Assembly: GCF_045037415.1 (NCBI RefSeq) | Contig: NZ_CP173438.1 | Reading direction: 5' to 3' (one strand) | DNA from: Escherichia coli | GTDB taxonomy: Bacteria; Pseudomonadota; Gammaproteobacteria; Enterobacterales; Enterobacteriaceae | DNA length: 64,000 nucleotides | Shown here: positions 7,935 to 8,034 of the stretch, in pieces | Position numbering within the stretch: the first letter of the stretch is position 1 | Layout: each line of letters starts with the position of its first letter | The notes under the pieces: generated by a model | What the model saw: the letters and a program-made list of their open reading frames with translations, nothing else | What the model was told of the DNA's origin: nothing | Databases searched by the model: none | Made by a program: the position numbers and the translations under genes

Positions 7935-8034
7935 CTCGCTTCTCCGTTACCCGGCTCCTGGTCGGGTAACTCCCCTCTCCTCGCTGTGATATACTTTTCC
8001 CCCACTTTTACTCATTCTCCACGGAGATGCCGTT

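Follow-up and report, generated by a model that had tools for sequence, protein, structure and literature searches.

A conserved stem-loop without U-tract marks the 3' end of the ybeD mRNA upstream of the lipB promoter in Escherichia coli

Two described classes of stem-loop are closest to the element reported here, a hairpin at positions 7946-7970 on the plus strand of a 64,000-nt stretch of Escherichia coli DNA (contig NZ_CP173438.1 of assembly GCF_045037415.1, the whole of which is called "the window" below), situated between the genes ybeD and lipB. The first comprises the protective stem-loops reported by Dar and Sorek (Nucleic Acids Research (NAR) 2018, PMC6061677), which lie at the steady-state 3' ends of Rho-dependent E. 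coli transcripts and up to which the RNA is trimmed in a manner depending on PNPase and RNase II. The second comprises the intercistronic structures of differential decay, for which malE-malF is the paradigm: an endonuclease cuts within a poorly translated downstream cistron, whereupon the RNA is trimmed back to the intercistronic structure (Dar and Sorek, PLoS Genetics 2018, PMC5927463). Protective structures of this kind set the stoichiometry of operons and are often conserved (PMC5927463). Further standards of comparison are the canonical intrinsic terminator and the ybeD/lipBA locus of Shewanella oneidensis (PMC4398509), where, as in E. coli, ybeD lies directly upstream of lipB and a lipB promoter is located in the spacer. 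In Shewanella, the two units were not found to be co-transcribed by reverse transcription PCR, and CRP controls the promoter in the spacer, whereas in E. coli, for which the authors of that study had no data on co-transcription, read-through transcripts are detected (see below). Viewed against these systems, the ybeD hairpin appears by its function to be one of the protective 3' stem-loops without U-tract and of the intercistronic stabilisers, both of them known classes, and no general concept is altered by it. Public tables already contain the transcription units of this locus, its RNA 3' end and the start site of lipB; the hairpin itself had been neither described nor annotated. New are its structural conservation and covariation across Enterobacterales, its replacement by another hairpin in Pantoea and Erwinia, and its constant pairing with a conserved extended -10 promoter of lipB.

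The window is part of the E. coli chromosome and carries rlpA, dacA, ybeD, lipB and lipA, all on the plus strand, according to its open reading frames (ORFs) and the RefSeq annotation of identical DNA. The upstream cistron ybeD (7671-7934, stop codon TAA at 7932-7934) encodes a DUF493 protein of 87 amino acids, while the downstream cistron lipB (8035-8676), which starts with TTG, encodes octanoyltransferase. Positions 7901-8060 are identical to strain MG1655, in which both genes lie on the minus strand of NC_000913.3 (ybeD 662379-662642, lipB 661637-662278), so that in the ybeD-lipB interval the genome position equals 670313 minus the window position. The hairpin consists of GTTACCCG-GCTCCTGGT-CGGGTAAC and begins at the 12th base past the ybeD TAA. 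A preliminary description of this site, made from the sequence, had reported a stable, GC-rich stem of 8 bp about 12 bp after the stop codon, and this proves accurate: the sequence is exact, and five of the eight Watson-Crick pairs are G-C. In the plus-strand RNA, a G·U, a C-G and a U·G pair lengthen the stem to 11 pairs closed by a CCU triloop. The calculated folding energy, which the preliminary description had suggested as a check, amounts to -15.8 kcal/mol (z = -4.39), a value equalled by none of 200 shuffled sequences, and the same fold prevails when the flanks are included (-17.2 kcal/mol, z = -4.10). The minus-strand RNA forms the eight Watson-Crick pairs only (-10.7 kcal/mol; z = -0.98 in context). 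We would like to note that stability alone constitutes weak evidence of function, since 25-nt folds of -15 kcal/mol or lower occur at 14 sites on the plus and at 18 sites on the minus strand of the window. As such strength is not rare, the claim that the hairpin did not arise by chance rests on its conservation and on published mapping of RNA 3' ends.

The hairpin is not a member of a repeat family. Its site gives the only perfect match within the window, two other matches having three mismatches each, and of the 5426 complete E. coli genomes 5424 contain its sequence, at a median of one place per genome. An origin from a repetitive extragenic palindromic (REP) sequence, a bacterial interspersed mosaic element (BIME) or another repeat is hence ruled out, as the sequence is single-copy rather than one of many copies sharing a consensus; in this respect the hairpin differs from the malEFG element, which is a REP repeat. 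A scan of positions 7400-8300 against Rfam 15, with E-values up to 10, returned no family overlapping 7946-7970. Use of the hairpin in antisense is ruled out likewise, for the minus-strand fold is weaker, no T-run follows it and no convergent gene is present.

For the analysis of conservation, a scan for YbeD with one genome per species provided 80 Enterobacterales loci, to which the window was added as the 81st. At 75 of these 81 loci one single hairpin of -12 kcal/mol or lower begins no more than 16 nt past the ybeD stop codon, the median being -17.5 kcal/mol. Members of Escherichia differ in the loop but not in the stem, and a CCCG/CGGG core of the stem is invariant throughout Enterobacteriaceae. 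Across this family the two arms co-vary, GTTACCCG/CGGGTAAC corresponding to GACCCGGC/GCCGGGTC in Klebsiella and Raoultella, to GTTGCCCGGC/GCCGGGCAAC in Pluralibacter and to GTTACCTGA/TCAGGTAAC in Enterobacter sp. ENT03. In an alignment of 39 sequences 82.3% of the stem cells are paired, compared to 22-42% if the 3' partners are slid by one to three columns, and changes on both sides are seen in nine of the 13 stem pairs. The covariation score of this alignment (0.194) exceeds that obtained upon shuffling (0.120; the observed score was reached in 0 of 500 cases) as well as that obtained upon sliding (0.02 to 0.07). RNAalifold independently recovers the helix, with compensatory changes in five of its eight pairs. 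Among the inner ten pairs, 22 G·U pairs stand against seven A·C mismatches, an excess which speaks for the ybeD-sense (plus) strand RNA as the selected molecule. In Pantoea, Erwinia, Mixta and their relatives the same position is occupied by an even stronger hairpin of unrelated sequence, GCGCTGGCAAAG....CTTTGCCAGCG. The matched changes of the arms together with this unrelated replacement argue that the selected feature is an RNA stem-loop just after ybeD and not a particular sequence. Judged from these comparisons, the hairpin following ybeD is a selected structure of the sense-strand RNA.

It may be added that in the Pantoea/Erwinia/Mixta hairpin, whose arms are GCTGGCAAAG/CTTTGCCAGC, the 3' arm runs straight into the TATACT -10 element of lipB, so that RNA structure and promoter DNA overlap. 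Such overlap is found at L037, L039-L041, L043, L044, L047, L048, L050, L052, L058 and L071 of our set of loci (around positions 1768-1810).

Published transcript data place an RNA end directly behind the hairpin. The curated Term-seq table of Adams et al. 2021 (PMC7815308) lists a dominant, "primary" 3' end of ybeD at MG1655 position 662338 on the minus strand, and names ybeD in three rows, two of which carry 73,288 and 48,391 reads. In the 61-nt sequence printed in that table the 3' end is position 51, as verified with the ATG of lipA and the coordinates of lipB and ybeD. Transferred to the window, this steady-state 3' end falls on position 7975 of the plus strand, 5 nt past the stem, and reads GGGUAAC-UCCCC^. 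Mapping of 3' ends had been named in the preliminary description as the experiment to consult, and it does reveal an end at the hairpin; the absence of such ends, which would have spoken against that description, is not what is observed. Supplementary Data 2 of the SMRT-Cappable-seq study by Yan et al. 2018 (PMC6131387) gives the start of a lipB-only transcript at MG1655 position 662309 on the minus strand, corresponding to the A at window position 8004 (plus strand), 9 nt past a TATACT hexamer. Altogether four primary full-length transcripts from that study are relevant to the locus, namely lipB, ybeD-lipB, dacA-ybeD-lipB and rlpA-dacA-ybeD (PMC6131387), and a comparison column of the same data set indicates that the units ybeD, lipB and ybeD-lipB were already contained in RegulonDB. 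Transcripts of the type rlpA-dacA-ybeD stop after ybeD, while ybeD-lipB, which starts at 662706 (window 7607), and dacA-ybeD-lipB read through (PMC6131387). As both kinds exist, the boundary between ybeD and lipB is a partial one. Polycistronic read-through and a shorter species ending at the hairpin are both documented, the former by the read-through transcripts of Yan et al., the latter by their rlpA-dacA-ybeD transcript and by the Term-seq end. The proposal of the preliminary description, a partial attenuator or mRNA-stability element, is supported by the 3' end 5 nt past the stem and by the partial read-through; an attenuator in the regulatory sense goes beyond what these data establish. 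In the available data files of the Cappable-seq paper of 2016 no matching coordinates were present, and neither ybeD nor lipB is mentioned in the accessible supplementary material of the differential-decay study (PLoS Genetics 2018, PMC5927463) or of TERMITe 2025.

The sequence following the stem lacks the U-tract of an intrinsic terminator. In E. coli the first eight nucleotides past the stem are UCCCCUCU, with three U in eight and a tail score of 1.08, and there is no A-tract upstream of the hairpin. Tails are U-poor across 75 loci (median of three T in the first eight nucleotides), although a few more U-rich ones occur among relatives, Klebsiella having AAUCUCUUUAUUU, and tail scores there reach 3.2. 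A consensus terminator scan requiring at least five T in eight did not call the hairpin at 7946-7970, whereas it did call that behind dacA at 7617-7640. The view expressed in the preliminary description, that the missing U-tract speaks against a canonical intrinsic terminator, is borne out by these results. With a canonical terminator, for which the dacA hairpin may serve as an example, the ybeD hairpin shares a stem-loop rich in G+C, comparable in size and in energy, past a stop codon with a 3' end after it; its 11-bp stem and triloop also agree with the stem of about 5 to 14 bp and the short loop that are characteristic of such terminators. It differs from them in that UCCCCUCU provides no U-tract, no A-tract precedes the stem and the consensus scan remains silent. 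The hairpin resembles the class of Dar and Sorek (NAR 2018, PMC6061677), whose members are stable stem-loops past a stop codon with the 3' end adjacent, low in U, without A-tract and followed by a C-rich, G-poor sequence. The tract downstream of the ybeD hairpin (7971-8034, plus strand) is rich in C and in pyrimidines and poor in G (24 C, 8 G, 23 T and 9 A in 64 nt), and nearly all loci show the same bias in the 60 nt past the hairpin, which on average contain 20.2 C and 9.1 G, compared to 26.5% C and 25% G in the background. From its composition this tract, which contains the lipB promoter and 5' untranslated region (UTR), is a candidate for a Rho-loading or unstructured region.

Inside this C-rich tract lies the promoter of lipB, which directly follows the hairpin, is itself conserved and is absent from the preliminary description. 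The highly conserved sequence TGTGATATACT (7985-7995) reads as an extended -10 element, TG-a-TATACT (7987-7995, plus strand), in agreement with the start at 8004; no recognisable -35 hexamer accompanies it. In the E. coli sequence, cTGTGATATACT (region 7985-8004), the extended -10 lies 19 bp past the hairpin. A -10-like hexamer is present at 71 of 77 loci (62 TATACT and 7 TATAAT; 51 of the hexamers are preceded by TGn), its median distance upstream of the lipB start codon being 38 nt. The distance between hairpin and hexamer ranges from about 0 bp, where the stem abuts the hexamer as in Pantoea, to 42 bp, so that the two are separate modules and do not constitute one rigid site.

Translation of lipB appears to be kept low. 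Its Shine-Dalgarno sequence GGAG (8023-8026) precedes a TTG start codon (8035-8037; together 8023-8037, plus strand), and across the loci the start codon is TTG at 69, GTG at 9 and ATG at none of 78. Moreover, the Shine-Dalgarno sequence is predicted to be mostly paired with nearby pyrimidine runs of the CUCC type (mean probability 0.73). The start codon and the predicted pairing suggest that lipB translation is deliberately weak. In Escherichia the predicted partner is UCUCC at 7941-7945, immediately 5' of the hairpin, whose pairing with GGAGA at 8023-8027 would stack on the hairpin; its probability is about 0.5 in Escherichia and averages 0.04 over 70 loci elsewhere. Pairing of UCUCC with the lipB Shine-Dalgarno sequence is ruled out as a conserved function of the hairpin, being restricted to Escherichia.

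Upstream of ybeD, a textbook sigma-32 promoter, CTTGAAA-13 nt-CCCCATAT, is present at 7572-7599, ahead of the terminator-like dacA hairpin (7617-7640). Since the ybeD-lipB transcript starts at 7607, 10 nt before the dacA hairpin, ybeD transcripts must read through that hairpin. Its tail on the plus strand, GCUAUUUAAU, is poor, and in the two Term-seq rows considered there is no curated 3' end between 662338 and 664017, hence none listed at the dacA hairpin. ybeD has been reported to give the strongest RpoH peak in genomic SELEX (systematic evolution of ligands by exponential enrichment) and is included in a gene list drawn from a proteome study.

Taken together, the stable stem without U-tract and A-tract, the adjacent 3' end, the preponderance of C over G downstream together with the weak start of lipB, and the RpoH peak of ybeD lead us to favour, as the probable though by no means certain reading, that the hairpin is an exonuclease barrier which fixes and stabilises the end of the ybeD mRNA and thereby uncouples ybeD from lipB. 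Transcripts from the strong sigma-32 promoter of ybeD, as well as those arriving from dacA and rlpA, would enter the untranslated, C-rich spacer. One fraction would proceed through lipB, and the remainder would lose its downstream part, be it because Rho terminates transcription within the spacer or near the start of lipB or because an endonuclease cleaves in the same region, presumably followed by trimming which leaves a precise, stable end 5 nt past the hairpin. The hairpin would then keep the abundant ybeD message stable, and its level separate from that of lipB, which has an extended -10 promoter of its own. This arrangement probably explains how the strongly transcribed heat-shock gene ybeD and the weakly translated lipB can lie 100 bp apart on the same strand and yet have levels which probably differ greatly: the stem-loop would fix the end of the ybeD mRNA, while lipB would depend mainly on its own promoter. 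The parallels to the malE-malF paradigm and other differential-decay hairpins (PMC5927463) are an upstream cistron with a strong promoter, a weakly translated downstream one, the presence of polycistronic read-through and the conservation of the structure in enterobacteria. Most protective structures of that study, however, lie inside the downstream ORF, whereas the ybeD hairpin is intergenic. For the annotation of the ybeD-lipB transcription units this reading should be of use, and the hairpin offers a clean, conserved, single-copy test case for RNA 3' ends at hairpins without a U-tract.

Several points weigh against an exonuclease barrier. Unlike the class of Dar and Sorek, the ybeD hairpin lies outside the bicyclomycin-sensitive regions of Adams et al. 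(PMC7815308): this dataset contains no Rho region labelled ybeD or lipB, nor one at 661.7-662.3 kb, and thus lends no support to a part played by Rho, although its measure is taken over a window of 800 nt, in which the lipB promoter would blur or could mask an effect. In addition, and again in contrast to that class, an active promoter and a translated gene follow within about 65 nt of the hairpin, which leaves little room for a long Rho-terminated tail. The available supplements of the differential-decay study (PMC5927463) do not mention the pair ybeD-lipB, and the literature searched yielded no data from exonuclease mutants, on half-life or on termination in vitro for the hairpin site. Finally, a 3' end at +5 nt alone cannot separate trimming from termination, and a hairpin halting RNA polymerase fits the data as does one halting only exonucleases.

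The most serious competitor of the exonuclease barrier is the hairpin itself being the terminator, either as a weak, non-canonical intrinsic one or assisted by factors such as NusA, NusG or Rho, which would release RNA polymerase within a few nucleotides of the stem in spite of the missing U-tract, stop transcription partially and shield the lipB promoter. We consider this rather unlikely, although the precise and abundant 3' end 5 nt past the stem and the coexistence of transcripts which do and do not read through speak for it. The hairpin is, moreover, always placed upstream of the conserved -10 of lipB, abutting it in Pantoea and Erwinia, the tails of some relatives are richer in U (in Klebsiella AAUCUCUUUAUUU, with scores reaching 3.2), and inefficient low-U intrinsic terminators backed up by Rho have been discussed by Dar and Sorek (PMC6061677). 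Yet UCCCCUCU would form an rC:dG hybrid that is stable, whereas intrinsic release calls for the opposite (PMC6061677), and the median of three T in eight across loci, the silence of the scan at this site and the missing upstream A-tract count against it as well. As a more far-reaching possibility, which we judge improbable, hairpin and -10 element might form a U-tract-free terminator-promoter module whose release would be neither canonical intrinsic nor classical Rho-dependent and which would insulate expression of the lipoate pathway from the sigma-32 promoter of ybeD.

Stable 3'-terminal hairpins are among the structures that 3'-end-binding proteins recognise. The stem-loop might be a regulatory site for a protein or a small RNA (sRNA), for instance one bound by a ProQ-type 3'-end binder or serving autoregulation, or it might form the core of an sRNA which originates from the 3' UTR of ybeD, and the CCCG/CGGG core, invariant in Enterobacteriaceae, would suit a recognition element. 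We hold this for quite improbable, too, because the whole sequence is replaced in Pantoea and Erwinia, Rfam gives no match, a U-tail for Hfq is missing and no promoter is seen within ybeD from which a short RNA could arise. Literature searches on ybeD together with ProQ and on DUF493 returned nothing relevant, and no paper was found to connect ybeD with ProQ or with an sRNA at this place.

Very unlikely, in our opinion, is a role of the inverted repeat as DNA, in which a dimeric regulator would bind it as a palindromic operator or as an upstream element of the lipB promoter; counted from the start at 8004, the repeat spans -58 to -34. Such a role would be conceivable for a perfect 8-bp inverted repeat which overlaps the -35 region of a promoter without recognisable -35 hexamer, and in Pantoea the repeat takes up everything upstream of the -10. 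Against it, the sequence of the half-sites turns over between genera while their complementarity is kept, G·U pairs prevail over A·C mismatches by 22 to 7 and an RNA 3' end directly follows the repeat. Nor is there a fixed protein-DNA geometry, as the distance from stem to -10 varies from about 0 to 42 bp and the length of the loop from 3 to 9 or more nucleotides. A conserved half-site at a fixed distance from the promoter, as expected for an operator, was sought and is not found, given the covariation, the excess of G·U and the variable spacing. A chance palindrome without function, finally, has next to no probability left: comparable hairpins are indeed encountered about every 4-5 kb on each strand of the window, but conservation at 75 of 81 loci together with compensatory substitutions, presence in 5424 of 5426 E. 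coli genomes and an abundant 3' end 5 nt past the stem exclude it.

Some observations concern the surroundings of the hairpin. The spacer between ybeD and lipB is expanded at some loci, measuring 276 nt at L007, 224 nt at L020 and 209 nt at L033, and about 113 nt at L005 and other Citrobacter loci. Some Citrobacter and Intestinirhabdus carry extra DNA between the -10 element and the ribosome-binding site of lipB, which ranges from a 14-17 nt stretch of the CTCTATGTGAGTAT type up to more than 100 nt. In the spacer between dacA (6350-7561, plus strand) and ybeD a Shigella study has predicted an sRNA designated "Ssr5".

Two further 3' ends, both abundant and classified as "orphan", appear in the Adams table (PMC7815308). 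One precedes the dacA start codon by about 55 nt, at approximately 6295 (MG1655 664017/664018), the other 4 nt upstream of the ATG of lipA (9701-10666, plus strand), at MG1655 660220. They hint at processing within the 5' UTR or at premature termination of both genes. Between lipB and lipA the window lacks, at about 9455-9460, some 392 bp of MG1655 (660463-660854) belonging to ybeF, the gene of a LysR-type regulator. What is left of ybeF forms a single ORF of 177 amino acids (8936-9469), so that the gene appears to be truncated in this strain.
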